This document shows, in pieces, positions 851 to 22,017 of a stretch of DNA of 64,000 nucleotides. The stretch is from an uncultured bacterium. GTDB lineage: Bacteria; Omnitrophota; Omnitrophia; Omnitrophales; Aquincolibacteriaceae. The stretch covers positions 78,665-142,664 of the forward strand of contig CAYPIR010000002.1 in assembly GCA_964410905.1 (NCBI GenBank), written 5' to 3'. The position numbers were made by a program, and so were the translations under genes. Within the stretch, counting starts at the first letter, position 1, and every line of letters starts with the position of its first letter. The notes under the pieces were generated by a model. That model did no database searches, was not told where the DNA came from, and worked only from the letters and a program-made list of their open reading frames with translations.

Positions 851-2485
851 GTGAATTTATCACGCGATAATAAATCTGTCAACGAACAATCGGTAAATGA
901 AACTCATAACGCGGGGACGCGCCACCTTGTTCGCGCTACCGCTCTTATTGCGGCGCTTACTTTGATAGGACGGATACTTGGGCTCATTCGTGATATTGTT
1001 AGCGCTAAAACTTTTGGAACAAACTGGCATTATGACGCGTTTCTTTACGCGTTTATGCTGCCCAATCTTTTTAGGCGCATTGTGGGAGAGGGCGGACTGA
1101 CTAGCGCGTTTATCCCGATCTATAACTCAATTCATGAAAAACAGGGCGAAAAAGAGGCGTTTCGCTTCGCCAATGTTACGATTAGTGTTTTAGGCGTTGC
1201 GTTGCTTGTTTTTATTTTATGCGTGGAAGGCGTTTTGAGTATTCTCGTAGCCTGCGAGTTTAAATCACAAATTCTCAATCTCACTCTGCAGCTTTCTCGT
1301 ATTCTTTTCCCATACCTTTGGTTTCTTTCACTATACGCGCTAGGTATGGGAATTTTAAATAGCCATAAACATTTTTTCGCGCCTTCACTTGGTCCGGCGA
1401 TTTTAGATTTGACATGGATTCTTGCCGTCATATTTATTCCGCCGAAATTCTCAGGCGATTCTCTTCACGAAGTTACTTGGCTTTCTTACGCGGTTTTACT
1501 GGGAGGGTTGCTTCATGTGATAGTGGAGTTGCCACCGTTGTATGCCATTGGATTTAGGCTTCGCTGGATTTGGGACACGGCTTATGACGGACTAAAAAAA
1601 GCTTGGAAACTTTTATTGCCAGTAATTTTGGGATTTGCTGTAGTTCAAATAAACATTACAGTCGATATGACGCTTGGCATGGTTATTGGTTCTGGAGCAA
1701 ACTCAAGTCTTTGGTACGGAAACAGACTTATGCAGTTTCCGCTTGGGATTTTCGCGCTTGCCATGGGAACGGCGCTTTTACCTCTTATGGCTCGGCAAAT
1801 CGCGCGCGGCGAAAAAGAACTTTCAAAAAAAACATTATCGTTCGCGCTTCGTAATGTGTTCTTTATTATTTTACCGTCATCTGTCGGGCTTATTGTTTTG
1901 CGCGAACCGATTATACAAATGCTTTTTGAACGTGGCGCGTTTGACGCGACCTCAACCGCTAGGTGCGCGGCTGTGCTACTTGGCTATACGATAGGGCTTT
2001 TTGCTTTTGCTGGACAAAAAATTATGAACAGCGGTTATTATGCCGCGCATGATTCTAAAACACCGATGAAAACCGCCGTGTGGTCGCTTCTGTCAAATAT
2101 TATCATCAGCCTTATCCTTATGATTCCTTTAAAAGAGGCGGGGCTAGCGCTTGCGACTTCGATTTCAGGAATTATTCAACTAGGACAACTTATTTATTAT
2201 TACCCTAAAAAAGTTGGCGATTTTCCGTTTGCTAACATAGTAAAATCGTTTTTGAAACTTTTCTTAGCCGCTGTCGCGATGGGTGTTGTGGCGCATTTTT
2301 CGCTTGGAGCATTGAAAGATTTTTTTCCAGGCGAGACATCCGTAGCGAAGGTTTTGCAAGTTCTTGGTTCAATGGGGATTTCCGCGTTTGTGTACTTGGG
2401 AATTTGTTTTGTATTTAAACTTCCCGAGATTAGAGAAACATTGGAATGGTTTCTATTGAAACATAAAAATGAAAAAATTGCGTGA
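851..2485 (+). CDS. murJ: lipid II flippase MurJ/MviN
   Basis: 544-aa polytopic membrane protein with a GTG start. MurJ-like motifs (…LPNLFRRIVGEGGLTSAFIPIY…) and ~14 predicted TM helices. Confidence 0.85.
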   Translation: MNLSRDNKSVNEQSVNETHNAGTRHLVRATALIAALTLIGRILGLIRDIVSAKTFGTNWHYDAFLYAFMLPNLFRRIVGEGGLTSAFIPIYNSIHEKQGEKEAFRFANVTISVLGVALLVFILCVEGVLSILVACEFKSQILNLTLQLSRILFPYLWFLSLYALGMGILNSHKHFFAPSLGPAILDLTWILAVIFIPPKFSGDSLHEVTWLSYAVLLGGLLHVIVELPPLYAIGFRLRWIWDTAYDGLKKAWKLLLPVILGFAVVQINITVDMTLGMVIGSGANSSLWYGNRLMQFPLGIFALAMGTALLPLMARQIARGEKELSKKTLSFALRNVFFIILPSSVGLIVLREPIIQMLFERGAFDATSTARCAAVLLGYTIGLFAFAGQKIMNSGYYAAHDSKTPMKTAVWSLLSNIIISLILMIPLKEAGLALATSISGIIQLGQLIYYYPKKVGDFPFANIVKSFLKLFLAAVAMGVVAHFSLGALKDFFPGETSVAKVLQVLGSMGISAFVYLGICFVFKLPEIRETLEWFLLKHKNEKIA

Positions 2486-3896
2486 GAAAGTAAAAGATTT
2501 CCCGATTACGCCCGGCGTTTATGTCATGAGAAACGCGCGAGGAGACGCGATTTATATCGGCAAAGCCAAATCTCTTAAAAAACGAGCGCTGTCGTATTTC
2601 CGCATTCCCGCGCCTACGCCAAAAATCACGGTGTTGATGGAGAAAGTCGAAAGAATAGATTACATAGACACGCCTACGGAAATGGACGCGCTTTTGCTGG
2701 AAGCGCATCTTGTTCGCAAACACCAACCACGCTACAATCAAGAATTAAAAGACGACAAAAGTTTCCCGCTGCTAAAAATCACAAAAGAAAAATTTCCAAG
2801 ACTTTCCATTACGCGGCGAAAAGAAGATAAGAACGCGATTTATTACGGACCATACACAAGCTCACTTTTGCTAAAACAGGCGATCAATTTAATTCAGGCG
2901 CTTTTCCCAATACGGAAATGCCGAACATTGCCCAAGTCCGCGTGTCTTTATTTTCATATCGGTCAATGCGTTGCTCCCTGCATACATCCCGAAGTCCGAC
3001 CCAAATACGATTTGCTTATAGAAGAACTCAAAACATTTTTAGGCGGAGGGAAGAAAAGTTTTGTTCAATATTTGAAAGAGAGAATGGAAGATGCAAGCAA
3101 GGCGACTAAATTTGAGGAAGCGAAATTCTTTAAGGACCAAATTGACGCTTTGGGGAAGTTGAAGAGAAAAAGATTTTTTCCCAAAAATCCCGGCAAAGGC
3201 ATTTCTCTATCAGCCACTTTGGAATTAAAAGAAACTTTAAACCTTGCTAAAATTCCCGCGCGAATAGTTTGTTTTGATGTGTCGAATGTTCAAGGGAATA
3301 AATCTGTCGCGTCCCGCGTGGCTTTTTACCGCGAGTTTCCAGATAAGGCTTCGTATAGGCGATACCGCATAAAAGACATTTCGGGGATAAACGACTATGC
3401 GATGATTTCGCAAGCGTTGACGCGGATGATACGAGGAATTAACGAGAGGCGAGAAAGATTTATTCCCGACCTTATTGTGATAGACGGCGGGCTTGGACAT
3501 TTGAACGCGGCGATAAAAATATTGCGGCAAGAAAAAATGGAAAATGTGGAAATCGTTTCCATTGCTAAACAGTTTGAATGGATTTATTCGCCGAAATTTT
3601 TGCGGCCGATTGTTTTCGATTCGACTTCGCCGGCGATTTATCTTTTGAAAAAAATTCGCGATGAAGCCCATCGTTTTGCGATTACATATCATAGAAGTCT
3701 AAAGTCTAAATCTTTGGAAGAATCTGAGCTTGATAAAATAGAAGGCATTGGGGTGAAGCGAAAGCGGCTCTTACTCAAAAAATTTGAAAATATAGATAAA
3801 ATTCGAGATACTTCCATCAATGAAATCGCGAAAATAGACGGTTTTGACATTAAAATCGCGAAAAAAATTATAGAATTTTTAAATAGTAAAATATAG
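2469..3896 (+). CDS. uvrC: excinuclease ABC subunit C (short form)
   Basis: N-terminal GIY-YIG nuclease (PGVYVMRN…IYIGKAKSLKKR), an RNase H-like endonuclease domain and a C-terminal HhH. It overlaps the murJ stop by 17 nt. Confidence 0.8.
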   Translation: MKKLREKVKDFPITPGVYVMRNARGDAIYIGKAKSLKKRALSYFRIPAPTPKITVLMEKVERIDYIDTPTEMDALLLEAHLVRKHQPRYNQELKDDKSFPLLKITKEKFPRLSITRRKEDKNAIYYGPYTSSLLLKQAINLIQALFPIRKCRTLPKSACLYFHIGQCVAPCIHPEVRPKYDLLIEELKTFLGGGKKSFVQYLKERMEDASKATKFEEAKFFKDQIDALGKLKRKRFFPKNPGKGISLSATLELKETLNLAKIPARIVCFDVSNVQGNKSVASRVAFYREFPDKASYRRYRIKDISGINDYAMISQALTRMIRGINERRERFIPDLIVIDGGLGHLNAAIKILRQEKMENVEIVSIAKQFEWIYSPKFLRPIVFDSTSPAIYLLKKIRDEAHRFAITYHRSLKSKSLEESELDKIEGIGVKRKRLLLKKFENIDKIRDTSINEIAKIDGFDIKIAKKIIEFLNSKI

Positions 3897-4021: not shown

Positions 4022-7000
4022 GTGATGCCCAATCTGATGAAAAAACATCTTTCTAAAACCTCAATACAAAGCTGGATTGAATCGCGATTTGTCCGCAGGC
4101 TGGTCGCGTCTTTAGTAGGGGTGTTTTTTATCTCTTCTAACATTCTTTATCCTACCGCCTTTGCAACGCCTAAGCCCATTGCTTTACAAGAAAAAATACA
4201 AAAGAAAGACGGCTTTGAAATACCCGAAAGTTTGGGAACGGTGATAAGCACAAGTTTAAATGCGCAAGAAAAAATACCGAATGTTTTTTTAATACAAGAC
4301 GCGCACGCGATCCCGAGCGCTCAAAAAAACCTTGGAAAATTGACTCAATATTTACAAGAAAATTATGGAATTCAAACGGTCGCGTTAGAAGGCGCGGACG
4401 GCGAAATTGACGCGACTCTTTTTAAAACATTTCCTGACAAACAAAAACGCGATGGATTTTTTAATGATCTGCTTGAACGCGGCGAGATTTCCGGAGTCGC
4501 GACGGCGAGCGTACTTTCTCAATTTCCATCAAAATACATAGGCTTGGAAGATTGGGCCCTTTATCAAAAAGGGACTGAGAGTTTTCTGAAAAGTATGGAG
4601 ACTAAAAGCGAGAAGATTGGAGAACTGGAGCTTTTAAAACAAAATCTTCAAAAATTAAAAAATAAATATTTCTCGAAAGAGCTGCTTGAATTTAACTATG
4701 AACAAACCAGGTGGGAAGAAGAGACAAGGAACATAGCGAGCTTTTTGAAATATCTTCTGCGGTATAAAAACTTAGCAGATACGGAAAGTGAAATTTTAAA
4801 TATTTTAAAAATCATAGACGAAGAAAACAAAGAACTGGATGCCCAAACTAACGCGGAAATAAAAGCGCTTGCGGAGCGAATCGAAAAGAAACTAAAAGAC
4901 AAAACGGAAATAATTAAATTTAATAAATTAAAACAAGAAGTTCAAACCTCACAAATCAACAAAATAGAATTTTTAAGTGAAAGCGTGAAGCTTTTGCCTG
5001 AGGAAATAGCGGATGTCTCGCCGACGGTTTGGCAAAAAGTTTTACAACATAGACGGCTGAACGCTTTGACAGGAAAAGAGTTTTTAAATTCTCTTGAGAG
5101 TTTCCTTGAGAACGTTGAGAAAAATCTTATTTTTTCCAACGCGGAAAAACAAATTTTAAAAATGGACGAGCAGTTGCTTTTATTGGGCAAGCTTTTTAGA
5201 TTAGAACTTACGCGCGGCTCTTTGAAAAAAATAAAAAAATTTTTTAGTGAAAATGTTTCTAGTAAAAATGCTGACATCGCGGAATTAAACGAAAGCATTT
5301 ATAAGTTTGCCAAGAATTCTTCGAATGATGTTTTTTATAATTTTTACAATATAGCCGAAGAGCGCGAAACTGTTTTTGAACAGAAACTTTTCTTACTAAA
5401 GAATTTATCCGACGTTTTAGTTGTTTTGGGCGGGTTTCACACTGACGCGGTAGCGGAAAAGCTCAGGTCTAAAAATATTTCTTACGCGATTATTTCGCCT
5501 GTCATAAAAGACATTCCCGCGGACGATCGCTACCTTAAACAAATGACGGGCAATGTGTCTTGGTCCAAATATTTTGTTTTGAATAATGGACAAATAAACT
5601 TGTATGACTCTTTAGCAAGAGCGTTTGTCGATAATGTTCGTGTCAAAGGCAATGTCGAGGACGCGAAACTTTGGCGTAATGAAATTATCCGTTTACTCGC
5701 TGGACAAAAGAGAGTTTCTGAATACGGTAAATACGCGGCTTATATTGCGGATGAGAATTTTAAAAAGAAAAAATCGGAATGGATTGTCAAACTCCAATCG
5801 TTTATTGAACGGCTCAAGTTTTTTGACCGCAATGGGCAGCTTACCGAACAAAACATTGCTAGCATTTTTGCCGCGCAAACCCATCAAACCCCATATGCTG
5901 TGGCGTCATTTGTGCCCAATACACAAATACAGGTTTCGTTTCCCTCTGCGCAGAATGACAAAACCGTCCGCTCTGAATCAAGAACTGATTTTGAAACGCG
6001 CCGTTCCTTTCGTTTTAACAATCACTATGGAATTCATATTCGCCCCAGTTCACTTCTCGCAGATTTTGCTTGGAAATCATTTGAAAAACTTGGACTGAAA
6101 GTTTCCATTAGAAAAAATAACGAAGAGCTTATCCCGATGACTTCCACTTTTCTTATTCGCGAACTTGGAATTGCCAGCGGCGACCAAATTGAAATTTTAA
6201 TAGAAGGCGAACAGCCTCAAACGCTTCGCGAGCAAGTCGCGAACCTTATTGAACAAGTTATTTCAGATAGCAATATGCTTGAAGAAGAGGGAATTGAGAA
6301 TCCTAAATATGAGTTATACGTTGAAAAGTTAAATAAAATTTCGGAACAGCAGACGTTTGACATTGATGATGCCGCGCAATCCGCTTTAGAAAATAGCAAT
6401 GGACGGTTTTTAAGTTGGATCGCGGAAAAAGGATTTGGAGGAATTGTTAGTTTTGCAAATGCTGCCGCAGACCACTTTTCAAATATTGGGAAGAAGTCTT
6501 TGGATGTGGATTTTGATGAAATCGAGTTTTATTATCAGAATGAAATAGTTCGCGGTTATCCATCTATAAAAAGCCGAATGCTTGGAATTGTAAACACCAA
6601 AGGAATATTTATTTTTAACGCGCGTGTCCAAGATGAAAAGAACGCGCTCGCGTTTGGTATTTATCCTGAGGATTATCAGCCGTCAAGCCGAAGCGGTTCC
6701 GTTGTGAAAATGAGACATAAAAACATTCCAAATCCCGGGCATGGCGATGGAGTTCTTGAATGCGTCTTCCAAAATGTCGGTGAAGTTCCTAAATTGCTGA
6801 TGGTGCCTGTTTTTCCCGGTAGAAAAGCTGCCGCGGAAGATTTTAGAAAATATACTAGCGATGCCGCGAGACTTGCCAGATTTTTGATTGTGGCTGGAAT
6901 GCCTAAAGCCACCCGCCTTGATGAAGCGACTCAATACGATATTGTTGATTTTATAAAAAAAGGCGGCGGCGACATCCGTTCGGAGCAGCTTCAAACGCTT

Positions 7001-10000
7001 AACGATTTGATCCGTCTTGATGAAGAAGATTTTCTTGAATCTAATTTTGAAAATGATGCTGATGAACAAATTCAGCGAAGTGAGACGCGCGGCAAAAGCG
7101 ATAGCCGGCAAAACTTGGGGGAAATTGAATTTTATGTGCGCGACGAAATGAAGTCGAAGGAAGAGACCAAAAAATTTCTTGCTGAAATTAATGCCAGTAA
7201 TAGAGAGTATATTTTTGTGGCGAAACAGCCAGAAGAAACTCTCCAAATAAACTTTGGAGTTCGCGGCAGTGATTTTCATGATGAACTTGGTTCTGAGATA
7301 GAAGGTTCTTTGTCCGGTGTGATTTATTCAGAATCTGGCGAGCGGGAAATTATTTTGGTGCCCAATTTCGAGAACCGCGTTTTTGGAAATTTTGGAAAAG
7401 CAATTAAAGATATAAAAAGAGTCTCGGGAATTTTAATTGAAAATGGATTGTCAAAAGATATTAAGATCGGTAAAGGTAACAAGAACGGAATTGCCAAGCT
7501 TTACAGACAGGCATTTGATAGTGAACCGCCTAGTTTGCCAGAAACGCTTGGTGATTTAGCCGAACTAATAACTAAGGATGAAATTGACGCAAGACGAGTT
7601 CAAGAGAGCATCGCGAAAAGTGAAGTTCGAAGCTATAGCGAAAGCAATTTTATAAATAAATCCCTAAACGCGATGAAAAAACTCCCTCCTGCCGTAAATG
7701 GCAAACCTCAGAAAGTAAGCGTGGTGATCTCTACAAAAAATGGTGATAGGTTTTTTTCTCCGGAAGAAAACAGAAACGGGCAAGACTCGCTTCTTGTAAA
7801 GATAGAGCAGCTTCAAGAGCTCTTTTCGCTCAATCCATCATATGACTGGGAACTTATTATTGTCGATGACAATTCGCCAGACGGACGAACGGGAAAACGA
7901 ATTTTAGAAAAAGCGAAGCTGCTCTATCCTGATGATGTTGAGAAAGGAAAAATCCGCGTCCTTTTTTCTCAAAATAAAGAGAGTAGAAAAGGCGGAGCTA
8001 TAGTTTATGGGATATCAGACGCGCTGAGCGAATATTCTGACTATATTGTTTACACGGATGTGGATTTATCAACTGATTTGCGGCAAATAGGATTATTGCT
8101 AAACAGTCTTGTAGTTGAGAAAAATGGAATTGCCATCGGTTCACGAAGGCTAAAAAAATCCCAAACTATCGGCAGGACAAATTACAGAGAATTTTCCAGC
8201 TGGTTTTACAATAATCTCGTAGGGCTGATTCTCCCGCTTTTGAGAAATATAAAAGACACGCAATGCGGATTTAAAGCAATGAGCCGTGATGCCGCGCTTG
8301 AAACGATGCCTTTTGTAAAAGATTTCGGGATGTCTTTTGACACGGAAATTTTGTTGCTCGCCAGAGAAAAAGGGTTATCAATTGAAGAGATTCCAATTTA
8401 TTGGGAGGATTATCGCGGCGGAACATCTATTGTGGTCGCGAGCGAGACATTAAAAATGATTCAAGGGTTGCTAGATCAAAGCTTGCGGCATCAAATTCGT
8501 GAATCCCAATATTGGCCTATAGGAACACAGAAACCTTTGGCAATGATAGCGACTCAAGCCGCTAAAGAAGCAATATCTGTACTGAAAGCGATTTTAAAAG
8601 GTTTTATGCCATTGAGGGAGATTGCGGAAAGACCTAGCGGCGTCAAAATTGGCGAGGAGTTACGTTCAATTGAAAATAGTAAAAAAAATCTCGCGGAATT
8701 TATCAAAAATGGAACGAAAGGAAAATTTTGGGCGGAGGATAAAACATCTGTTGAAGACAAAATCGCGATTATTAATAGCGATTATGGCATAAATCTTCTT
8801 AGCGATAGCGAAGTGGTGCTACTCGAGGGCTTTTCGGATAGACCACAGCGTCCGATCTTAATAACAGCTCAAGATGGAAAACAGTATGTGTTCAGACGAT
8901 TTTTTACAGACTTAGAAAAAACTAAATTTGTAGTTTCGTATCAGAAACATTTTAATCAAAAAAATATCGATGAAGTCCCGCGGCTTATTCCGCGTAAAAA
9001 TATGTCGGGCGATCGGGCTGAGGATTATGTTTCTAAAATAGGAGATTATTATTATGTTCTTGAAGAAGCTCGTTTTGAAGGTCATATAGTCGATTACAAG
9101 GACGCGACAGAAAAACATTTTGAAACCATAGGAAAAACCATCGCTCGATTCCAAAATATCTCAGACGGTTTTGCCCCTGAAGGAGAGAAAACGGATGAAA
9201 CGTTAATAGGCGTTTTGAAGGCTAGAGATGATTTGGAAACGTTGCTGAAACTAACGAAACGGAAAAGTGAAATCGCAGGGTTTGAAAATTTATCGTCTGC
9301 TGAAAAAATTTTTATCAAAGCAATTCCATTTTTACTTCAACAAATGGAAATTTTAAGCGCAAATCTCCCAGAATCTCTTTACGAACAATTACCCCAAGCG
9401 TTGACCGAATGCGATATTGGTTTTCACAATATGCGATTCAGTGAAAATGGTGAAGACGCGCCTTCGGTTTACGATTTTGAACTTGTCCGCAAACAACCGC
9501 GCATTCAAGATTTTAGAAATTCAATGACAACTTTTGGGATGTCAACGGGACGCAGATATGACCGTAAGCTAATGGAAGGAATTTTAGGCGGATATGAAAA
9601 AGCGATTAAAACACCTTTGACGGAAGAAGAAAAAAGAGCAATCCCGGAAATCATACGCGGAACATTTTTGTGGACGTTTGTGGGGCTTTTTTTTGTTCAA
9701 GAAGAAAAAATCAATAATAATGAAAACCTTAGAAAGACAGTAGAATTATCGTTTGCCGATTTTCAAAAATTTGCTGAGGATTTTTCGAGCGGGAACATCA
9801 TTGGATTGTCATCTGATGCGGCTCAAGGCGATGGTGCGATAAGAAGCGAAAACCTCTCTGACGACTATCGTCCTTCGCTTATGGCGGAATTGCTTTTTAT
9901 TTCTAACCAAATCGAGGATATCCAAATTATCTTAAATGAATTAAGAAAATTTAGGCACAGCGATGAAGAACAACAAGCGTTAGAAAAAATTGAACAAGCT

Positions 10001-13000
10001 TTAGAAAGAGTATCGTTAGAAGTGATGCAATTTGTAAATGTACAGGGAGATTTTTATGATGAGGAAGGTTATTTTAAGAATGTGTCGGAGGCTTGGAAAG
10101 AAGCTAGACGATGTTTGAATGGATATTCGGAAATAGCCTCGGAAGAAAAACAAAACCGCATTAAAGATGTTGATGTTCGCTTGTATCGTCTAGCGTCGCG
10201 TTTGGCGGGTCTTTTTGAGGCTAAGGAAGTTGCTGTTGTCGAAGAAATAGGGAAGGTTGAAAAAATAAATGACGCGGATGATTTTGAGGGATTTGTCTCT
10301 GATCTTTTGTATAGGCTTAATAAAGACAGTTCGAATTATATTTTTTTGACAGAGATTTTAAAAAATCCACAAAAATATGAAACGAATTTTTTAAATCATA
10401 TTGGCAAAATGATTCTTGGTAAATTAAGCGAAGACTTTGATTCTGCGAAGCAGTTTGTGGATTCTTCTCAGCTGATTTTAGATAAAGAAGGGTTTATGTC
10501 TTGGCGCAAGGCGTTAGTTGAAAACAACAGCATGTTTGTGAAGGAGTTTGAAAAGATTGTGCCAAAAAGAAAAGATGTTTCCATAGATCTTTATGGACAA
10601 ATGCTCTTTTTTATCGGAGAGGGATTTGATCGTTATTTTGAAATTATTTATGACAAGCTTATTGGAACAAAACCTCCTGTAGCTATTTATAACCCTAAAC
10701 GTTCATATCATGCGCGTGCAATGAGCTCGGTTCATATGCGGACAAAGCATTTGCTTTTTGGCGAGAAAACAGCAGACGATAAATATAAAGACAGCCGAAT
10801 AACATACTTGGATGACGAATTTGATCAGCGGTCGTCCGCCAACGCGGAAAAAGTAAAAAAAGCAATTAATATATGGAAAGATGTCGCGGCTAAAGACAAA
10901 CTCGAAATGCTGAGAAGAATAGACAATTTTCTCGAGACAACTTGGGTTGAAGAAATTGCGGAGCAAGGTGAAAAAATATCACCACTTGTGTTGATAGTGG
11001 CTGATGCGGAAGCAAACGTTGCGCGTGTTGTCCACACCGACAGATTGTCCAGGACATTGTTTTTTACTAAAGCGTATTTAGACACGTTAGATATAAATAA
11101 CGATGCTGACATGAGAGAACTGGCTGTTTGGCTTAATGTAAGCCAGAACTGGTTAGACCAGAGCGAAAAGAAATCAGCAGATGTGTCGAATTTGGAAAAC
11201 GATAGAAAAGTAGAAGACAATAAACAAGATTTGAATCGCCGTTTTTTTGAATTGGAAGACACGGGGCTGCTTTCCACGGATGAATTAAAACAAAGGCTTA
11301 GCCGTTTGATGAGAAATCATATTTTGAATCGATATCATTTTTTTGTAGGACGAGTGGCAGAAAAAGAAGAGCAGGCTTTCAAGTTGATAAAACTGGGAGA
11401 ACAGCGGATTCGTGATTTCTCCAAACATCCCGAATGGAATGAAGTCGTGGAATTGCGAGATCCTTTTCGCGATGCGGTAAAACCGCTTAAGGATTTAATT
11501 TTTCAATATGAGGCAATGGGAATGCGCAAGCAAGTTGATATTGCGTTTCAGCGTTTTCTTTACGCTATTTCAATGGTGCAGAAATTTGATCCAGGCGGAC
11601 TTTTGCCTTGGGGATTCCAGGTGGATTTGATTTTTATGTCCCTCAGACTTGATTATTGGGGACACTTTAAAAATGAAGTCGAGCTGTTTCTTACAGGCAG
11701 AGAATCGGATACTTGGGAGCCGAATGCGCGGGAAAATCAAGAAGAACAAAAAAGTTGGAAACGCGGATTTTGGAGAAGAGGGTTTCCAAGAAAGTTTTCA
11801 TCAATTAATGCTTACGAAATAGAATATTACTCGCTGCGCGCTAATGGTTGGCGTTTTTTTAGGCGTCTAAAATTAGAAATGATGGCGCAACTGAGTGCTT
11901 CATATCCTGAGCACCGCTTAAAGCGAAGTGCTATAGTGCGAAGCATTTACGAGCTTCTTGAAGAGTCGCAAAAGAATCCTTTGAAAAGTTTGAAAGAAAA
12001 GATAGCCGCACGAGGAGAGGCTTTAGAACTCGAAGAACTTTTCCCTAAGGCGCGGTCAGTGGAGCGTGAAATAAATCCGCTTGGAAGCAAGCTTGAAACA
12101 GGGGATGGAATGGTAGTTTACGATATTGAAAACGCAAAGAGTCGTCCAAGTGATTTGTTTGAAGAAGAAAAGCCTTGGTGGGTTTGGGGAGGCTCTAGCG
12201 GGCTTATCCGTTATTCGTCTTGGTGGAACGCGTTTCGTAGCCTTTTGCATGTTTATGAAACGGAGTTTAATCGTCTGCCTAAGCATCCCGAGGCGAAAAA
12301 CAAGTTAAATAAATGGAAAAATGTTTTTGCCAAAGACTTGTTGGAAATCGGGGGAATGAAATTTGATAAGTTGAAAACAAAACTAAGCTTGATTGAAACA
12401 AAATTGAGCGAAGGAAACATTGATGCTGTCCGGAAAAACGCGTTTGGTTTGAGACGACTCAGATGGCTGCGTTCAGAGCCTGAATTAAAACCCATGATAA
12501 ATCTTGCGGAGGAAATAAGCCGTTTGGCGGAGGATTCGCCTATTCGTAATAAAATAAAAATGGAAGAAGTAATTAAAAAGTTGAAAGAACGGCTTGCTCT
12601 GGCGGAAAGTTTGATAACCTTTCTAAGGGTTTATCACGAGATTTATTTTAAGTTGAGAATGGAAGAACAAGTACCGCATAGCTTTGCGGTTGATAAGGCT
12701 TTTAGAATGTCTTTAGAGAAATGTCGGGAAACGACAGACGCGATGAAATTACTTTTCTTTCAGTTTGTTTATTTTTCCAGAAAAAGAAACGCAAGTGATT
12801 TTGAATGGTTGTCGCATGTGATTATGTCGACTTTTGTCCGAAAGAACACACAACAAATGCTGCTTCCTCTCGATGAATCTTTCGTGATTCCCCAAAATGT
12901 GGAACGGCAAGCGTTGCCTGAAATTGTCAATGTGTTTATTCGAGTTTTGGATCTTCACAAAGATTTAATTACCCCAAATGGCTATGAGAAAATAGACATT

Positions 13001-13924
13001 GATGGAGCTGTTTTCCGTTCGGAAACTAGAGCGAAAATAATCGAGACTATTGTCGGGAGTGCTGTTGAAAATAAAAAACCGAATGATGAAACCGTTCAAA
13101 AATTCCGCTCGGAAATTTACAGCGAGGGGTTGGAAACAATAGAGAAGCGGCTTTGGGACGCATTTAACAATGTTTTTATCCCGACCGCGATGGCGAATAT
13201 AACGTCCGATGGGCTATTGGTGAACGCTTATGCCGAATTGGAGAAAATGCTTGTTGAAAGTAAAATTTCTTCAACCGAATTTAGCAACGCGGCGGATTTT
13301 ATATTTAACAACCAATTGAAAAGTCTTAGTGAATCTATAGAAAAAAAAGAGATAGAGGTCGCCGCGCCGATTATATTTTATTCGAATACGGAAATTATGC
13401 GTAATAGGCTGTTTGAATTTATTAAAACTATTCAGCAAGGCTTAGAATCGAATAATTATCAAATCTTTATTGTTTGTGAAAGCCGCAAAGAAGTTCAATC
13501 TCTTAGGACAGAACTTGGGCAACGGAAAATGTCGCAAGGGGTGAGAGTTTTAGGGGAAGAGGGAATGGATAACGCGGTCGAAGAAATGAGGAAATCTGTT
13601 TTTGAAAATAAAAAATTCAGTGAATCTTTTGGAGCTTTCTTTCCTTCAGGCGATGTGGCGATGAAAGTTACTGATTGGAAGCGTAAGGTTCATAACGAAA
13701 TTCCTGAAGAGTATGCTATGTTATTGCTGCCCGCGCTTACGAAATATTTTGCGGTGACACGAAACAAGGATTTGAACAGTGAAACTCTTGCCATCGCTTT
13801 GCAAAAAGCGTTTCCTGATATTTCTTCTTCTGTTAAATTTCAAACAGAACGCGGGATTGTCATTGCTATAGAGGTTTTGCAATCTATCATAGCCGCTGTT
13901 CGGCAGATTGCGACAGCTGCGTAG
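4022..13924 (+). CDS. giant 3300-aa multidomain protein: signal peptide/anchor + TraB/TIKI-like + HPr-like + GT2 glycosyltransferase + kinase-like + long unassigned helical C-terminal region
   Basis: One uninterrupted 9903-nt ORF. All antisense ORFs across it are short and low-complexity. The N-terminus has a basic n-region, a hydrophobic stretch and AFA-TP. The embedded domains are listed as separate features below. Confidence 0.8.
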   Translation: MMPNLMKKHLSKTSIQSWIESRFVRRLVASLVGVFFISSNILYPTAFATPKPIALQEKIQKKDGFEIPESLGTVISTSLNAQEKIPNVFLIQDAHAIPSAQKNLGKLTQYLQENYGIQTVALEGADGEIDATLFKTFPDKQKRDGFFNDLLERGEISGVATASVLSQFPSKYIGLEDWALYQKGTESFLKSMETKSEKIGELELLKQNLQKLKNKYFSKELLEFNYEQTRWEEETRNIASFLKYLLRYKNLADTESEILNILKIIDEENKELDAQTNAEIKALAERIEKKLKDKTEIIKFNKLKQEVQTSQINKIEFLSESVKLLPEEIADVSPTVWQKVLQHRRLNALTGKEFLNSLESFLENVEKNLIFSNAEKQILKMDEQLLLLGKLFRLELTRGSLKKIKKFFSENVSSKNADIAELNESIYKFAKNSSNDVFYNFYNIAEERETVFEQKLFLLKNLSDVLVVLGGFHTDAVAEKLRSKNISYAIISPVIKDIPADDRYLKQMTGNVSWSKYFVLNNGQINLYDSLARAFVDNVRVKGNVEDAKLWRNEIIRLLAGQKRVSEYGKYAAYIADENFKKKKSEWIVKLQSFIERLKFFDRNGQLTEQNIASIFAAQTHQTPYAVASFVPNTQIQVSFPSAQNDKTVRSESRTDFETRRSFRFNNHYGIHIRPSSLLADFAWKSFEKLGLKVSIRKNNEELIPMTSTFLIRELGIASGDQIEILIEGEQPQTLREQVANLIEQVISDSNMLEEEGIENPKYELYVEKLNKISEQQTFDIDDAAQSALENSNGRFLSWIAEKGFGGIVSFANAAADHFSNIGKKSLDVDFDEIEFYYQNEIVRGYPSIKSRMLGIVNTKGIFIFNARVQDEKNALAFGIYPEDYQPSSRSGSVVKMRHKNIPNPGHGDGVLECVFQNVGEVPKLLMVPVFPGRKAAAEDFRKYTSDAARLARFLIVAGMPKATRLDEATQYDIVDFIKKGGGDIRSEQLQTLNDLIRLDEEDFLESNFENDADEQIQRSETRGKSDSRQNLGEIEFYVRDEMKSKEETKKFLAEINASNREYIFVAKQPEETLQINFGVRGSDFHDELGSEIEGSLSGVIYSESGEREIILVPNFENRVFGNFGKAIKDIKRVSGILIENGLSKDIKIGKGNKNGIAKLYRQAFDSEPPSLPETLGDLAELITKDEIDARRVQESIAKSEVRSYSESNFINKSLNAMKKLPPAVNGKPQKVSVVISTKNGDRFFSPEENRNGQDSLLVKIEQLQELFSLNPSYDWELIIVDDNSPDGRTGKRILEKAKLLYPDDVEKGKIRVLFSQNKESRKGGAIVYGISDALSEYSDYIVYTDVDLSTDLRQIGLLLNSLVVEKNGIAIGSRRLKKSQTIGRTNYREFSSWFYNNLVGLILPLLRNIKDTQCGFKAMSRDAALETMPFVKDFGMSFDTEILLLAREKGLSIEEIPIYWEDYRGGTSIVVASETLKMIQGLLDQSLRHQIRESQYWPIGTQKPLAMIATQAAKEAISVLKAILKGFMPLREIAERPSGVKIGEELRSIENSKKNLAEFIKNGTKGKFWAEDKTSVEDKIAIINSDYGINLLSDSEVVLLEGFSDRPQRPILITAQDGKQYVFRRFFTDLEKTKFVVSYQKHFNQKNIDEVPRLIPRKNMSGDRAEDYVSKIGDYYYVLEEARFEGHIVDYKDATEKHFETIGKTIARFQNISDGFAPEGEKTDETLIGVLKARDDLETLLKLTKRKSEIAGFENLSSAEKIFIKAIPFLLQQMEILSANLPESLYEQLPQALTECDIGFHNMRFSENGEDAPSVYDFELVRKQPRIQDFRNSMTTFGMSTGRRYDRKLMEGILGGYEKAIKTPLTEEEKRAIPEIIRGTFLWTFVGLFFVQEEKINNNENLRKTVELSFADFQKFAEDFSSGNIIGLSSDAAQGDGAIRSENLSDDYRPSLMAELLFISNQIEDIQIILNELRKFRHSDEEQQALEKIEQALERVSLEVMQFVNVQGDFYDEEGYFKNVSEAWKEARRCLNGYSEIASEEKQNRIKDVDVRLYRLASRLAGLFEAKEVAVVEEIGKVEKINDADDFEGFVSDLLYRLNKDSSNYIFLTEILKNPQKYETNFLNHIGKMILGKLSEDFDSAKQFVDSSQLILDKEGFMSWRKALVENNSMFVKEFEKIVPKRKDVSIDLYGQMLFFIGEGFDRYFEIIYDKLIGTKPPVAIYNPKRSYHARAMSSVHMRTKHLLFGEKTADDKYKDSRITYLDDEFDQRSSANAEKVKKAINIWKDVAAKDKLEMLRRIDNFLETTWVEEIAEQGEKISPLVLIVADAEANVARVVHTDRLSRTLFFTKAYLDTLDINNDADMRELAVWLNVSQNWLDQSEKKSADVSNLENDRKVEDNKQDLNRRFFELEDTGLLSTDELKQRLSRLMRNHILNRYHFFVGRVAEKEEQAFKLIKLGEQRIRDFSKHPEWNEVVELRDPFRDAVKPLKDLIFQYEAMGMRKQVDIAFQRFLYAISMVQKFDPGGLLPWGFQVDLIFMSLRLDYWGHFKNEVELFLTGRESDTWEPNARENQEEQKSWKRGFWRRGFPRKFSSINAYEIEYYSLRANGWRFFRRLKLEMMAQLSASYPEHRLKRSAIVRSIYELLEESQKNPLKSLKEKIAARGEALELEELFPKARSVEREINPLGSKLETGDGMVVYDIENAKSRPSDLFEEEKPWWVWGGSSGLIRYSSWWNAFRSLLHVYETEFNRLPKHPEAKNKLNKWKNVFAKDLLEIGGMKFDKLKTKLSLIETKLSEGNIDAVRKNAFGLRRLRWLRSEPELKPMINLAEEISRLAEDSPIRNKIKMEEVIKKLKERLALAESLITFLRVYHEIYFKLRMEEQVPHSFAVDKAFRMSLEKCRETTDAMKLLFFQFVYFSRKRNASDFEWLSHVIMSTFVRKNTQQMLLPLDESFVIPQNVERQALPEIVNVFIRVLDLHKDLITPNGYEKIDIDGAVFRSETRAKIIETIVGSAVENKKPNDETVQKFRSEIYSEGLETIEKRLWDAFNNVFIPTAMANITSDGLLVNAYAELEKMLVESKISSTEFSNAADFIFNNQLKSLSESIEKKEIEVAAPIIFYSNTEIMRNRLFEFIKTIQQGLESNNYQIFIVCESRKEVQSLRTELGQRKMSQGVRVLGEEGMDNAVEEMRKSVFENKKFSESFGAFFPSGDVAMKVTDWKRKVHNEIPEEYAMLLLPALTKYFAVTRNKDLNSETLAIALQKAFPDISSSVKFQTERGIVIAIEVLQSIIAAVRQIATAA
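4270..5530 (+). other. TraB/GumN/TIKI-like domain inside the giant ORF, with a large coiled-coil insertion
   Basis: The N-terminal motif VFLIQDAHAIPS matches the family GTxHV signature. The following …TVALEG… matches V.vEl. The C-terminal motif DVLVVLGGFHTDAVAEKLRSKNISYAII matches vvVGagHl.G…L…Gy.v. Confidence 0.35.
5996..6270 (+). other. HPr-like phosphocarrier domain inside the giant ORF
   Basis: FRFNNHYGIHIRPSSLLADFAWKSFEKLGLKVSIRKNNEELIPMTSTFLIRELGIASGDQIEILIEGEQPQTL aligns to the HPr consensus N..GlHARPA…KS.m.lm.LGi..G..i.i.aeG.de. The active-site His in GIHIRP is conserved. Confidence 0.6.
7710..8480 (+). other. GT2 glycosyltransferase domain (DPM1/GtrB-like) inside the giant ORF
   Basis: VSVVISTKNG…WELIIVDDNSPDGRTG (DXD), GGAIVYGISDA…DYIVYTDVDLSTD, and QCGFKAMSRDAALE are typical GT2 family-2 motifs. 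Confidence 0.7.
8800..9700 (+). other. protein-kinase-like (APH/choline-kinase family) domain inside the giant ORF, possibly catalytically atypical
   Basis: The N-lobe LLEGFSDRPQRPILITAQDGKQYVFRRF matches the PF01636 consensus L.gG.sN..y.v...dg..yVlRr. The catalytic segment IGFHNMRFSENGEDAPSVYDFE has Brenner-motif H-N-M in place of H-N-D, with the conserved Asn and DFE retained. Confidence 0.4.
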
Positions 13925-13943
13925 CCGTTCTAGATAATTACAT

Positions 13944-13978
13944 AATTCTGGACACTGCAAAGCAGTCGTTCCAGAATT
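13944..13978 (+). terminator. 9-bp perfect stem-loop 20 nt after the giant ORF stop, with no U-tract
   Basis: AATTCTGGA-N17-TCCAGAATT, with an inner ACTGC-aaa-GCAGT hairpin. No T-run follows, so this may be a 3' stabiliser or a Rho-dependent site rather than an intrinsic terminator. Confidence 0.3.
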
Positions 13979-14157
13979 CCTGCTCTATTGAACATTATGC
14001 ACTATATAAAACATGCATTAATTCCAAGCCTCTTCGCTTTTTGAGGCATCGTTTGTCATCAATGTCGGTTTTATACCGTGTTTTTACCCATCCGCAATTA
14101 TGTCCACATTTACTCACTGTTTTGTATAAATTTTTTTTATGCTACAATTCATAGCTT

Positions 14158-17100
14158 ATGACGAGCCCACTTTTAAAACGACTTAGCGAAAAAGTTTTGA
14201 TTCTCGACGGAGCAGTTGGAACTAATATTCAAAAATTCAATCTCAAGCCCGAAGATTTTGGAGGTTATGAAGGCTGCACTGAAGCGTTGAATCTCTTTAG
14301 ACCTGATGTAGTCAGCGATATTCATGAAAGTTTTTTAAAAATCGGCTGCGACGCGATCGAGACAAATACATTTGGCGCTAGCCGAGTAGTCCTCGCCGAG
14401 TATGGCCTTCAAGATAAAGTTGTCCAAATAAATGAAAAAGCCGCGCGTATCGCGAAAGAAATAGCCCAAAAATATTCTACTCCGGAAAAATCTAGGTTTG
14501 TCGTCGGTTCTGTCGGGCCGGGGACAAAATTGCCATCATTGGGACATATTAGTTTTGATGAACTAAAAGATTCTTATAAAGAACAATATCAAGGGCTTAT
14601 TGTGGGCGGCGTTGACGCGATATTGATAGAAACCTGCCAGGATATTTTGCAAGCAAAGATAGCGATTATCGCCGCCGTTGAATGCTTTAAAACCATAGGC
14701 AAAAGACTCCCGATATTCGCGCAGGTAACTTTTGAAGCTTCGGGCACGATGTTGCTCGGAACGGAAATAGAGTCAGTAATCGCTACTTTGGAAATGTTTC
14801 CCGTAGATGTTATTGGGATTAATTGCGCTACGGGACCGAAGGAAATGGAGAAGATAGTTCGCGTTTTGAGCGAAAAAACTACAAAGTTTATTTCCGTATT
14901 GCCTAACGCGGGACTTCCGGAAAACAGAGATGGAGTCGCGCATTATCATTTAACTCCGGATGAACTTGCTGATTTTCACGAGAGATTTGTTAAGGAATAC
15001 GGCGTAACAATCGTTGGCGGATGCTGCGGGACTACGCCTGAGCATTTAAAAGCGGTTGTGGAACGCGTACAAAATGTTGTTCCCAAAAAACGAGAAGTAA
15101 AACGCGAACCATCGTGTTCCTGCCTATATAACGTTTCCGCGTATAAACAAGAACCTGCGCCGCTTATGATTGGCGAGCAAACAAATGCCAATGGAAGCAA
15201 AAAGTTTCGCGAGCTATTAGACAAGGAAGATTTTGACGCGATAACGGAAGTTGCGAAAGAAGCGGTGAGAGAGGGCGCGAAGGTGGTTGATTTGTGCGTG
15301 GCTTATGTTGGCCGTGATGAAAAAAAAGATATGTCGGAGGCGATAACGCGATTTAATCAACAAGTAACAGTTCCCATAATGGTTGATTCCACGGAGGCGG
15401 ATGTCATTGAAGAGGCCTTGAAACGCGTAGCGGGAAAACCGATTATTAATTCAATTAATTTGGAAGACGGCGGCGCGCGACTTCGCAAGATTTGTCCGCT
15501 TGCCAAAAAATACGGAGCGGCGCTTGTGGCTCTTACTATAGATGAGCGCGGAATGGCGAAAACTTGGGAAGAAAAAATTCGTGTTATGAGACGAATTTAT
15601 CAAATGGCGACGCAACAATATGGAATTCGTCCAGAAGATCTGTTTTTTGACTTACTGACCTTTACTGTGGGGAGCGGAAGCGAAGAATTTAGAACGGCTG
15701 CAATTGAGACTTTGAAAGCGCTTCGTAAATTAAAAAAAGATTATCCTGACGTTCAAACTATTTTGGGGGTGAGCAATATTTCTTTTGGACTTTCTCCCGC
15801 CGCGCGGCAAACGCTTAATAGTGTTTTCCTGCATGAATGCGTTGAAGCGGGACTTGATGCCGCAATCGTAAATGCAAAAAAAATTATTCCATTTTTTAAA
15901 ATATCGACAAATGACCTGGATGCCGCGAAAAGACTTTTGCGCAATCAGTGGATTGACGGCAAAGATCCTCTGCAAGCATACATCGAGCGGTTTACTGAGG
16001 AAAAAACAGCTGAGAGGTTGTCCGCGGCGGAAGATTCTTCGATAGAAGAAATTTTAAAAGCGCATATTCGCGATGGAAATTCAGTAGAACTTGATTCGCA
16101 TTTAAAAGACGCATTGAAAAAATATAAACCGCTTGAGATTATTAATAAATTCCTGTTAGAAGGAATGAAAGAAGTTGGAGAACTGTTCGCTGAAGGAAAA
16201 ACGCAGCTGCCGTTTGTTCTTCAGTCTGCTGAAACAATGAAAAAAGCCGTGGCGATTTTAGAACCTCGAATGGAAAAACAATCGAGCGTGGAACGCGGGC
16301 GTATTGTTCTCGCGACTGTTCAGGGCGATGTCCACGATATTGGGAAAAATCTCGTTGATATTCTTTTGACAAATAATGGTTATAAGGTTTTTAACATCGG
16401 GATCAAACAATCGGTAGACGCAATTGTGAACGCGGCGATTGAATCCAAAGCCGATGCCATTGGACTTTCTGGGCTTTTAGTTAAATCCACGTATATTATG
16501 AAAGAAAATTTGGAGGAAATGCGCAGACGCAGAATATCTATTCCTGTTATATGCGGCGGAGCGGCGCTCAATGAACAATATGTTAAAGAAGTGCTTGACG
16601 CGGCATACGGGTCTCCTGTTTTTTATGCCCGCGACGCGTTCTCCAGTCTTCGCATTATGGAGTCTATAAAAGGTCGCAGCTCTGAGGCGACTGCGAAGGA
16701 AACGCCGAAAGAAAATAAAAAAGAGGAAATCGCGCCCAACCTTAAAATCGAAAGCGCGCAATCGAATGTGCCTAAAATTGATACGGGCACACAGTTCCAA
16801 GACAATAATAAGAAAAAAACAAACTCGAATGTCTTGCGGCGAGTTGACGGCGTTCCTTATGGCGAATTGAAGGCGAAGGGACCGGAGTTTTTCATCCATC
16901 GCGACAATTTCATTCCTGAGCCGCCGTTCTGGGGCTATCGGGTTATGAAAAATATAAAATTGAAGGAAGTATTGGCTTGGGTAAATAAGCATGTTCTCTA
17001 TAGATCTCAATGGCAATTTAAGCAAGGCGACAGAACGTCCCGCGAGTTTGATTTTTATTTGGAAGAAAATGTTCGCCCGATTTTTGAAAGGTTTTCTTTG

Positions 17101-17700
17101 CTCGCCATAAAAGACAAAGTTTTTGAGCCCGCGATTATTTATGGATTTTATCACTGCTATTCTGAAAACAATGACTTGGTTATCGTTGACGGTTCGGGAA
17201 AGGCAGAATTGACTCGATTTTCTTTCCCACGGCAGACGAAAGAACCGCGTCAATGTATTTCCGATTTCTTTTTGCCTAAGGGCGAGAAACTCGATGTAGT
17301 GGCTTTGCAAGCGGTAACTATTGGTAAGCGCGCTAATGAATACGGTGAAAAATTGTATAAGAAAAATCGCTATGCTGAATATTTTTATTTGCATGGACTT
17401 TCGACCGCGACGGCGGAAGCGTTGGCGGAATATACTCACAAGATGATACGGACAGAATTGAGCATTAGCACGATGGATAAAAAAACAAAAGATGATATTT
17501 TTAGGCAAGGCTATCAAGGCGCGAGATACAGTTTGGGCTACGCGGCATGTCCTAATTTGGAAGATCATAAAAAAATTTTTGAGCTTCTACCTGCGCAAAA
17601 AATCGGTATATCGCTTAGCGAATCTTTGCAGCTTTTCCCTGAGCAATCAACAACCGCGATAATAATACACCACCCGCAAGCGAAATATTTTTCAGTATAA
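14158..17700 (+). CDS. metH: cobalamin-dependent methionine synthase
   Basis: 1180 aa with all four modules: Hcy methyltransferase (LILDGAVGT), pterin-binding, B12-binding (GDVHDIGKN) and the C-terminal AdoMet activation domain. Confidence 0.9.
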   Translation: MTSPLLKRLSEKVLILDGAVGTNIQKFNLKPEDFGGYEGCTEALNLFRPDVVSDIHESFLKIGCDAIETNTFGASRVVLAEYGLQDKVVQINEKAARIAKEIAQKYSTPEKSRFVVGSVGPGTKLPSLGHISFDELKDSYKEQYQGLIVGGVDAILIETCQDILQAKIAIIAAVECFKTIGKRLPIFAQVTFEASGTMLLGTEIESVIATLEMFPVDVIGINCATGPKEMEKIVRVLSEKTTKFISVLPNAGLPENRDGVAHYHLTPDELADFHERFVKEYGVTIVGGCCGTTPEHLKAVVERVQNVVPKKREVKREPSCSCLYNVSAYKQEPAPLMIGEQTNANGSKKFRELLDKEDFDAITEVAKEAVREGAKVVDLCVAYVGRDEKKDMSEAITRFNQQVTVPIMVDSTEADVIEEALKRVAGKPIINSINLEDGGARLRKICPLAKKYGAALVALTIDERGMAKTWEEKIRVMRRIYQMATQQYGIRPEDLFFDLLTFTVGSGSEEFRTAAIETLKALRKLKKDYPDVQTILGVSNISFGLSPAARQTLNSVFLHECVEAGLDAAIVNAKKIIPFFKISTNDLDAAKRLLRNQWIDGKDPLQAYIERFTEEKTAERLSAAEDSSIEEILKAHIRDGNSVELDSHLKDALKKYKPLEIINKFLLEGMKEVGELFAEGKTQLPFVLQSAETMKKAVAILEPRMEKQSSVERGRIVLATVQGDVHDIGKNLVDILLTNNGYKVFNIGIKQSVDAIVNAAIESKADAIGLSGLLVKSTYIMKENLEEMRRRRISIPVICGGAALNEQYVKEVLDAAYGSPVFYARDAFSSLRIMESIKGRSSEATAKETPKENKKEEIAPNLKIESAQSNVPKIDTGTQFQDNNKKKTNSNVLRRVDGVPYGELKAKGPEFFIHRDNFIPEPPFWGYRVMKNIKLKEVLAWVNKHVLYRSQWQFKQGDRTSREFDFYLEENVRPIFERFSLLAIKDKVFEPAIIYGFYHCYSENNDLVIVDGSGKAELTRFSFPRQTKEPRQCISDFFLPKGEKLDVVALQAVTIGKRANEYGEKLYKKNRYAEYFYLHGLSTATAEALAEYTHKMIRTELSISTMDKKTKDDIFRQGYQGARYSLGYAACPNLEDHKKIFELLPAQKIGISLSESLQLFPEQSTTAIIIHHPQAKYFSV

Positions 17701-17738
17701 AATAAACAAAGACAAATTTAAATTAAGGAGCGAGTGCT

Positions 17739-18101
17739 ATGTCAGATAAAGACATTCGATTTAGTGAAAAAAAAGTAGATGACAGCTGGAAAGAGCAAGT
17801 CGAAACTGCGAAAGAGCAATGCGCGCCTAAAAACACTGAGGCAAATAAGCCGCCGGAGAAAACCTCAAAACTTTTTCTGGGTCTTCTGCAATCCTTAGGT
17901 TATCAAGCTTTGATGCATCTTGGCGAAATTCCGGATCCCACAACTCAAGAGCGAACGATAAATAGTGAAGGCGCGAAAGAAGCCATAGAGCTTTTGATGA
18001 TGTTGAAAGACAAAACGGCAGACAATCTAAGCGATGATGAGAAAAAAACGCTTGAAACACTTTTGACGCAGCTTCAAATAAAATTTTCTCAAGTCGTATG
18101 A
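17739..18101 (+). CDS. DUF1844-family small protein
   Basis: LGLLQSLGYQALMHLGEIPDPTTQE…AKEAIELLMMLKDKTADNLSDDEKKTLE matches the DUF1844 pattern hLGeiPdP.tge…ldlL.mL..KT.gNL…E. Recalled from memory, not searched. Confidence 0.45.
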   Translation: MSDKDIRFSEKKVDDSWKEQVETAKEQCAPKNTEANKPPEKTSKLFLGLLQSLGYQALMHLGEIPDPTTQERTINSEGAKEAIELLMMLKDKTADNLSDDEKKTLETLLTQLQIKFSQVV

Positions 18102-19069: not shown

Positions 19070-19085
19070 TAAAGGGCAACGATTC

Positions 19086-19541: not shown

Positions 19542-19556
19542 GATTCGGAGAAGAAA

Positions 19557-20018: not shown

Positions 20019-20060
20019 CGTTGGTTTTTACACCTTTAACCTTACACAACGGAAAAGATT

Positions 20061-21446: not shown

Positions 21447-21451
21447 GGGTT

Positions 21452-22012: not shown

Positions 22013-22017
22013 GAAAA

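Follow-up and report, generated by a model that had tools for sequence, protein, structure and literature searches.

What kind of protein is encoded by a gene of nearly 10 kb that lies between two housekeeping genes in the genome of an uncultured member of Candidatus Omnitrophota? This question is raised by a giant open reading frame (ORF) in a 64,000-nucleotide stretch of contig CAYPIR010000002.1 (assembly GCA_964410905.1, positions 78,665 to 142,664), henceforth referred to as the window, whose numbering is used throughout. The ORF occupies 4022..13924 on the + strand, starts with a GTG at 4022 followed by an ATG as the next codon (4025), and specifies 3300 amino acids (aa) plus a stop, corresponding to a mass of about 375 kDa; a 3299-aa protein in NCBI (P0001) is identical to its product. 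A first-pass annotation, made from the sequence alone, had read this region as a single unbroken 9.9 kb gene without plausible antisense genes, located between uvrC and metH in an uncultivated lineage rich in giant genes, and encoding HPr, GT2, kinase-like and TraB/TIKI-like modules that might form a self-contained, phosphorylation-regulated glycosylation machine. The individual modules and the gene structure stood up to closer analysis. The isolated machine did not: more than 120 proteins form a family in which the TIKI-like part is an invariable head while the cargo varies freely. With confidence and doubt in about equal measure, we regard the product as an Omnitrophota-specific, Sec-exported modular giant, that is a secreted polyenzyme, possibly processed at its linkers, which would act at or in a host cell.

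When the full-length sequence was used as query, 173 matches were obtained, nearly all of them giants of Candidatus Omnitrophota of 1,900-5,750 aa. At least 119 other proteins of this phylum carry the same type of signal peptide and head; they align to aa ~25-600 of the giant protein only, with 22-30 % identity and always at their own N-terminus, and family membership rests on this direct sequence comparison. A hidden Markov model (HMM) of the head located the module in 13 additional loci, where it opens long ORFs, including two tandem genes. A degenerate-pattern scan of 185,579 genomes (one per species) yielded 14 loci, 13 of them real and labelled Omnitrophota or auto-binned as 'Planctomycetia'. 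A candidate on a 4.9 kb contig labelled Pseudomonadales (L001, 468-572) was rejected as a chance pattern match that the head HMM does not recognise. In one Omnitrophota genome (L015, GCA_030698625.1), two tandem members of 4,675 and 9,106 aa, both head-first, occupy 10001-24028 and 26191-34028, downstream of a gene cluster encoding a response regulator, a PAS-histidine-kinase and KaiB.

The family-defining head (4199..5821, + strand; aa ~60-600, ~550 aa) is assigned to a TIKI/erythromycin-esterase-like alpha/beta core. Its motifs are IQDAH (aa 91-95), E123, R448 and GGFH (aa 470-473), and an alignment of 120 family sequences shows little or no variation at D93, H95, E123, R448 and H473. Judged by sequence position, D93-x-H95/E123/R448/H473 would correspond to the 2His/2Glu(+Arg) constellation of the superfamily that comprises TIKI, erythromycin esterase (Ere), ChaN, TraB-PrgY and RRSP-HopBA1, whose members likewise combine a parallel-sheet alpha/beta core with an Asp(Glu)-x-His...28 residues...Glu...Arg...His pattern. 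The 28-residue His-Glu spacing of the head is also that of Bcr135 (H85/E113) and RRSP (E3900/H3902/E3930/R4001/H4030) (PMC6254334). An AlphaFold2 model of the head built on 27 family sequences is confident (predicted local distance difference test, pLDDT, 88.1; predicted template modelling score, pTM, 0.79) and predicts an alpha/beta fold with a parallel sheet core, as in the TIKI/Ere/ChaN/TraB superfamily. Unlike the known members, the head contains a helical insertion of ~280 aa (aa ~178-457), and the same polypeptide also comprises a signal peptide and thousands of cargo residues. Pfam gave no match at E <= 5 for aa 56-600, including the families PF01963, PF04187 and PF05139, the head profile matched no PDB sequence, and a Foldseek comparison of the model with the PDB was not significant, probably because the helical insertion dominates the model. 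Altogether, the evidence for a TIKI/erythromycin-esterase-type hydrolase core, and hence for the TraB/TIKI-like N-terminal module of the first-pass annotation, is good but not beyond doubt.

Ahead of the head, a Sec-type signal peptide is predicted at 4022..4165 (+ strand, aa 1-48), with an n-region of about +5 net charge, a hydrophobic core (LVASLVGVFFISSNIL) and, after the core, an A-x-A cleavage-type site between AFA and TP. Nearly all family members have a signal-peptide-like N-terminus, and under a strict rule (basic n-region, hydrophobic core, A-x-A) it is present in 84 of the 106 N-terminally complete ones. A Tat signal, considered for the RR in the n-region, was dismissed as a property of the family, since RR is missing from most members. 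The hydropathy scan of the giant protein revealed no further transmembrane candidate besides an amphipathic C-terminal helix. Given the predicted Sec-type signal peptide, a purely cytoplasmic machine is unlikely. The first-pass annotation had missed this signal peptide, as well as the family, the C-terminal tail and the linker motif described below.

The second constant element is the C-terminal tail (13847..13921, + strand), an amphipathic helix ending in ...AAVRQIATAA-COOH. In right-aligned C-termini of the family, Ala is the last residue in 85 of 120 proteins and [AS]A the last two in 67, while most complete proteins without [AS]A end in [ST/A]-[LV]. Hydrophobic positions -5, -9 (Ala), -11, -14/-15, -18 and -22 define the amphipathic helix, and the C-terminus of the giant protein (...IVIAIEVLQSIIAAVRQIATAA) agrees with every one of them; its tail score lies in the top 0.12 % of 410,835 internal 25-aa windows, and an [AS]A ending occurs in only 3 of the 44 other ORFs of the window. 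The tail is also found on Omnitrophota giants with other N-termini and on signal-peptide-bearing GT2-APH proteins of ~900 aa. A 90-aa C-terminal family HMM did not detect the giant protein, and the family-wide part comprises the last ~25 residues only.

Between these ends, the family varies widely. According to precomputed Pfam annotations, its members contain phosphotransferase system (PTS) EI and HPr domains, ABC1 and Ser/Thr kinases, M48 peptidase, methyltransferases and GT2; carbohydrate enzymes such as starch synthase, glycogen phosphorylase, PGM, PGI, GAPDH, PPDK and ROK kinases; and radical SAM proteins, histidine-kinase ATPases, receivers, FHA, RelA/SpoT, SecA-like and AAA+ domains. 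A phmmer search of aa 751-3300 against the 119 other members gave nothing at E <= 1, so the cargo of the giant protein is not shared with them.

The recognisable cargo of the giant protein starts with an HPr-like phosphocarrier (6002..6253, + strand; aa 661-744), which matches PF00381 with E 3.4e-7 and 30.6 bits, above the cut-off of 23, and NCBIfam TIGR01003 with 30.1 bits, under the cut-off of 47.9. Like HPr, NPr and the multiphosphoryl-transfer fusions of the PTS, it has the signature with a phosphorylatable His, an Arg and a Ser: the active-site pattern G-x-H-x-R-P (His15, Arg17) appears as GIHIRP with His672 and Arg674, and the equivalent of the regulatory Ser46 is Ser708 in MTSTF...ELG. 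Unlike the PTS proteins, it is embedded in a predicted exported giant beside a GT2 and a kinase, and no EI, EII, EIIA or sugar permease was found in the giant protein or among the 19 window ORFs scanned, while other family members do carry EI (PEP-utilisers) or EIIA-2 domains. The GT2 glycosyltransferase (GT-A type; 7781..8491, + strand; aa ~1254-1490) matches PF00535 over aa 1254-1425 (E 1e-12, 48.7 bits against a cut-off of 23.3). Its putative nucleotide-binding DD (1282-1283) lies in IVDDNS (1280-1285) and its putative metal-binding DxD (DVD, 1346-1348) in TDVDLS (1345-1350). The nearest solved relative is a dolichol-phosphate mannose synthase (PDB 5mlz, E 7e-7), and by analogy with this one enzyme the acceptor may be a polyprenyl phosphate.

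The third module, at 8699..9811 (+ strand, aa ~1560-1930), is an APH-fold kinase-like domain of the CotS/YtaA, homoserine-kinase-II type. Taken alone, the region reaches 22.3 bits with PF01636 (APH), just short of the cut-off of 23.2, which is passed by five of its homologues (P0243, P0127, P0129, P0200 and P0123); a profile of eight sequences of the region matches YtaA/CotS (2q83, E 1.7e-12) and homoserine kinase (2ppq, E 1.3e-9). D1798 and N1803 of the catalytic loop (D-x4-N) and the metal-binding D1818 (D-[FW]-[ED]) are invariant in all eight. Between HPr and GT2 lies a ~190-aa domain of unassigned function, termed 'mid', in two copies (6488..7054, aa ~823-1011, and 7079..7591, aa ~1020-1190, both + strand). 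More than half of the giant protein has no assignable domain, and Pfam searches on tiles of all its unassigned regions gave sub-threshold noise only.

This large unassigned share bears on the possibility that the protein is a structural or adhesive giant of the surface or periplasm whose enzyme-like domains serve as binding modules or are non-catalytic relics. A role as adhesins or surface coats has been proposed for giant Omnitrophota proteins (PMC10066038), and the beta3 Lys that anchors ATP, present in six of the eight aligned kinase-like sequences, is replaced by Arg in the giant protein (YVFRRF) and in P0125. However, no adhesin-type repeats were detected, and the duplication of mid is the sole internal repeat. 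Moreover, going by the alignments, catalytic residues are kept in the head (D/H/E/R/H), the GT2 (DD and DxD), the kinase-like domain (D/N/D) and HPr (His/Arg/Ser). We therefore consider an adhesive giant quite unlikely.

The last ~1400 aa had been described in the first-pass annotation as E/K-rich helical sequence without assignment. With E+K at 11-23 % per 100 aa this part is not especially rich in these residues, and it contains blocks homologous to another Omnitrophota giant. The cargo here includes ~1,100 aa that are conserved but match no assigned domain. Conserved block A (9863..11932, + strand; aa 1948-2637), which holds no known domain, matches aa 1777-2449 of P0124 with E 2e-41; block B (12161..12889, + strand; aa 2714-2956) is common to P0124 (E 2e-33) and P0172; and block C (aa 2999-3062, 13016..13207, + strand, including an RSETR motif at aa 2999-3003) is common to P0124. 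The C-terminal domain (13277..13921, + strand; aa 3086-3300) matches the last 207 aa of P0174 (blastp E 5e-11). A word-indexed homologue search with aa 1901-3300 or the last 225 aa returned nothing, not even the entry of the giant protein itself, and is therefore uninformative rather than a sign of absence; a metagenome scan with a C-terminal alignment found no relative. P0124, P0174 and P0172 were later revealed as relatives of the C-terminal regions by an exhaustive HMMER search.

The relatives of the cargo show how the modules are exchanged. P0124, which comes from Omnitrophota, is 6,573 aa long and is annotated as 'HPr family phosphocarrier protein', has HPr, mid, GT2 and blocks A, B and C in common with the giant protein, and its gene (locus L017) is located directly upstream of metH, just as the giant gene is in the window. 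Conservation of domain order, which the first-pass annotation had put forward as a check, was partial: HPr, mid and blocks A/B/C follow the same order in the ORF of L017, whereas GT2 stands on the other side of mid. The deposited gene call of P0124 (L017, 1-27722) starts at an internal Met, and the frame is open upstream for at least 9,239 aa in total, beyond the fetched locus. The additional upstream part contains another copy of mid, recognised by HMM, and, read by eye, a motif resembling low-molecular-weight (LMW) phosphatases (CNANRERS) and a PPDK-like ATP-grasp stretch. P0174 (4,728 aa) consists of the head, a methyltransferase, GT2 and the C-terminal 207 aa homologous to those of the giant protein, and its gene (L018) lies directly downstream of lptE-holA-rpsT-murJ-uvrC, as does the giant gene in the window downstream of uvrC. 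Hence, in two other Omnitrophota genomes, one chromosomal slot holds relatives with differing cargo. Head and tail are constant over the family while cargo is swapped, even between genes of the same slot.

Nor is the combination of HPr, GT2 and kinase an isolated fusion, as had been supposed. HPr and GT2 are paired in P0124, P0132 and P0167, and kinase and GT2 in P0125, P0129, P0149, P0150, P0155 and the 921-aa P0123, P0129 adding a PTS EIIA-2 domain; both pairs are recurrent cassettes of other Omnitrophota giants. In locus L022 (1-11413), four large genes follow one another on one strand with gaps of 3-13 nt, and one of the four encodes a 921-aa GT2-APH protein with its own signal peptide and a -QAA end. 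This layout points to conversion of giant genes into rows of individual genes, and back, via gain or loss of stop codons.

Such separate, back-to-back cassettes could also be taken to mean that the giant ORF is an artefact, produced either by chimeric assembly or by sequencing errors that joined several genes. The assembly is of the metagenome type, and there is no close orthologue: an exhaustive HMMER search with aa 661-1860 gave 8,821 matches, nearly all to the GT2 part, the best non-self match having 34 % identity over one module. On the other hand, the frame runs for 3300 codons without a stop in DNA of 37-42 % GC, with even base composition along the gene, and antisense ORFs across 4022-13924 are short (<=198 aa). 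The protein begins with the family head and finishes with the family tail. Its N-terminal end adjoins uvrC (2469..3896, + strand) as in L018 and its C-terminal end adjoins metH (14158..17700, + strand) as in L017, and the shared slot with different cargo argues against a chimera, as does the order of HPr, mid and blocks A/B/C that, apart from GT2, matches the ORF of L017. An artefact is accordingly very improbable.

A further property, found in the clade of the giant protein within the family, is a short motif at the borders of modules, with the pattern [RK][SA]E[VITLS]R and mostly R-S-E-[LV]-R, termed here the junction motif. It occurs 245 times in 120 family proteins, about 17-fold more often than the 14.5 occurrences expected from shuffled sequences. 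The giant protein has four strict motifs against 0.15 expected, a number reached in none of 500 shuffles. All four lie at inferred module borders: RSESR at 5969..5983 (aa 650-654), 7 aa ahead of HPr; RSETR at 7076..7090 (aa 1019-1023), between the two mid copies; KSEVR at 7616..7630 (aa 1199-1203), between mid copy 2 and GT2 (all + strand); and the RSETR at aa 2999 that opens block C. Near-matches are found at aa 1941 (IRSENL, ahead of block A) and aa 3029. In the ORF of L017, motif sites likewise immediately precede HPr and block A and immediately follow the mid domain. When cargo regions were scanned for 4-mers without bias, the six most enriched words were parts of R-S-E-[MVL]-R without exception, and the context upstream of the motif is rich in A, S, P and G, as in linkers. 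No junction motif is present in 16.7 kaa of other window ORFs, and the nearest relatives of the giant protein have 1.4 motifs per 1,000 aa compared with 0.04 in the distant branch. A DNA-level repeat as its source was rejected, as the sites differ in synonymous codons; it is therefore the protein sequence in which the motif is maintained. In the closest relatives, the tail ends in ...R-[SA]-E-[IV]-R-K-A-A, which is the junction motif followed by KAA.

These observations suggest a division of labour in which head and tail would serve export, maturation or targeting while the cargo supplies the activity. The junction motifs may be processing or docking sites, which would make the protein a secreted polyenzyme or polyprotein. 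Since the cargo depends on ATP, on nucleotide sugars and on a donor of phosphoryl groups, it likely acts at or inside another cell; the site of action might be the contact zone with, or the cytoplasm of, a host or prey cell of these ultra-small bacteria. There, an HPr phosphorelay may control the GT2/kinase unit in modifying a sugar acceptor, polyprenyl-phosphate-linked or other. Action in a host cell would fit the predatory or host-dependent lifestyle proposed for the phylum (PMC10066038; 10.1101/2023.11.21.568195).

The same enzymology is the strength of the main rival explanation, which comes close to the glycosylation machine of the first-pass annotation. It holds that the N-terminus is an uncleaved anchor and the protein a membrane-tethered scaffold facing the bacterium's own cytoplasm, with HPr-GT2-kinase working on the cell's own polyprenyl-phosphate sugars for an envelope glycan under PTS-type regulation. 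All recognisable cargo consists of cytoplasmic-type enzymes that need ATP, a nucleoside diphosphate sugar (NDP-sugar) or phosphate derived from phosphoenolpyruvate (PEP), the nearest solved GT2 relative works on a lipid carrier at the membrane's cytoplasmic face, and murJ and an LPG-synthase-TM protein, encoded nearby, are envelope functions. Such a scaffold fits the enzymology but not the predicted topology: the n-region of about +5 and the A-x-A site, features seen over the family, predict an N-in/C-out orientation or cleavage and thus an exported bulk, and the giant protein has no second transmembrane segment to return the chain. A constant head and tail with freely swapped cargo would also be hard to explain for a dedicated biosynthetic machine. 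We consider the scaffold improbable, while giving it more weight than the other alternatives.

Several points weigh against a secreted polyenzyme as well. GT2, HPr and ATP-dependent kinases are classical cytoplasmic enzymes, and their export is paradoxical unless another cell is reached. Export, processing and site of action are all predicted from sequence, the signal peptide having been called by rule on a hydropathy scan only. Head and motif are not strictly coupled, since R-S-E-x-R is missing from the distant half of the family, where the head is retained. The tail of the giant protein fits the family moderately, with a score of 4.3 against a family median of 17.6, and its kinase-like domain has the above-mentioned Arg in place of Lys. 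Finally, no conserved secretion system, PDZ protease or other partner adjoins the family members in the seven loci inspected.

Giant multi-enzyme proteins of Omnitrophota have already been described, for much longer proteins, and are mostly predicted to be exported or membrane-associated (10.64898/2026.06.07.730766). The 'multi-enzyme metabolic cluster' giants (Nielsen & Lui 2026 preprint, class 1) and the 'Archaeovorins' (West-Roberts et al. 2023 preprint) belong to the same phylum as the present family and share with it the tiling of unrelated enzymes (glycosyltransferases, methyltransferases, kinases, HATPase, PGM, radical SAM), frequent signal peptides and poorly conserved sequences. Those giants, however, have >=10,000 or >=30,000 aa, many transmembrane helices and SecA-like domains, whereas the protein described here has 3,300 aa, one signal peptide and no transmembrane array. 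Archaeovorins are defined by more than 30,000 aa, numerous transmembrane regions and a SecA DEAD-like domain (10.1101/2023.11.21.568195); with its length and without a match to SecA, the giant protein falls outside this definition. The N-terminal regions of such giants are generally without identifiable domains, according to West-Roberts et al. (10.1101/2023.11.21.568195). Neither preprint mentions a TIKI-like head, an -AA tail, HPr/PTS modules or the junction motif, and our literature search retrieved no paper linking Omnitrophota with polyproteins.

In design, the family also resembles MARTX and polymorphic multi-effector toxins, which have 3-5 kaa, constant ends around an exchangeable enzyme array and a built-in hydrolase; RRSP, a MARTX effector, is of the same fold superfamily as the head. 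The likeness is one of design only. Unlike MARTX, the giant protein has no RTX or glycine-rich repeats and no cysteine protease domain, carries a predicted Sec signal peptide in place of type I secretion, and its cargo consists of metabolic and regulatory enzymes rather than recognised toxins, so that it does not qualify as a MARTX protein.

A more specific version of the secreted polyenzyme would make the family a delivery platform of host-dependent Omnitrophota. The Sec-exported polyprotein would be cut at R-S-E-x-R by the head or a partner protease, and ordinary 'cytoplasmic' enzymes would thereby be set free in or on the host or prey, whose metabolism they would rewire or drain; the -AA tail would act as a signal for sorting or processing that is specific to the phylum, and cargo would be shuffled at fixed loci. 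The enzymes released might be an HPr-controlled glycosyltransferase/kinase unit here and glycogen, glycolysis, PTS and signalling enzymes elsewhere. In this full form the proposal is speculative, and we think it unlikely to be correct in every part.

The surroundings of the giant gene are those of a housekeeping region. Further upstream are the C-terminal part of holA and murJ, followed by uvrC; downstream of metH follow genes for a DUF1844 protein and the LPG-synthase-TM protein, aroQ, accB and accC. Ten more large ORFs scanned farther along the window are housekeeping genes, all on the + strand, and other family members are located in unrelated housekeeping surroundings. The housekeeping ORFs scanned in the window include murJ, uvrC, metH, accBC, nrdD, PFOR, ADP-forming acetyl-CoA synthetase, smc, recA, alaS, hisD, trpE, an NtrC-type regulator and PBP2. 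Of the window ORFs of at least 200 aa (1-64000), a single one, of 363 aa, does not lie on the + strand; it is contained entirely within metH in antisense orientation. GC skew is positive in all windows but one across the profiled part (first 20 kb). With 475 aa, the window uvrC is short, and its start shares 17 nt with the end of murJ; that of L018 is likewise short (480 aa). Rfam matched nothing in the 233-nt spacer before metH (13925-14157), and hence neither a cobalamin nor a SAM riboswitch was recognised there; no Rfam family reaches threshold in the whole 64 kb. Promoter and terminator scans performed no better than on shuffled sequence.

The small genomes of Omnitrophota consist to a large extent of giant genes. 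For a large subset of these genes, the family provides a handle in the form of a probably catalytic head, a conserved tail and an over-represented linker motif, together with evidence for an exchange of cargo modules that leaves head, tail and even chromosomal position unchanged. Such features permit concrete experiments, and they sharpen the paradox of ATP-, PEP- and nucleotide-sugar-dependent enzymes placed behind signal peptides. Resolving this paradox would reveal much of how these ultra-small bacteria interact with other cells.

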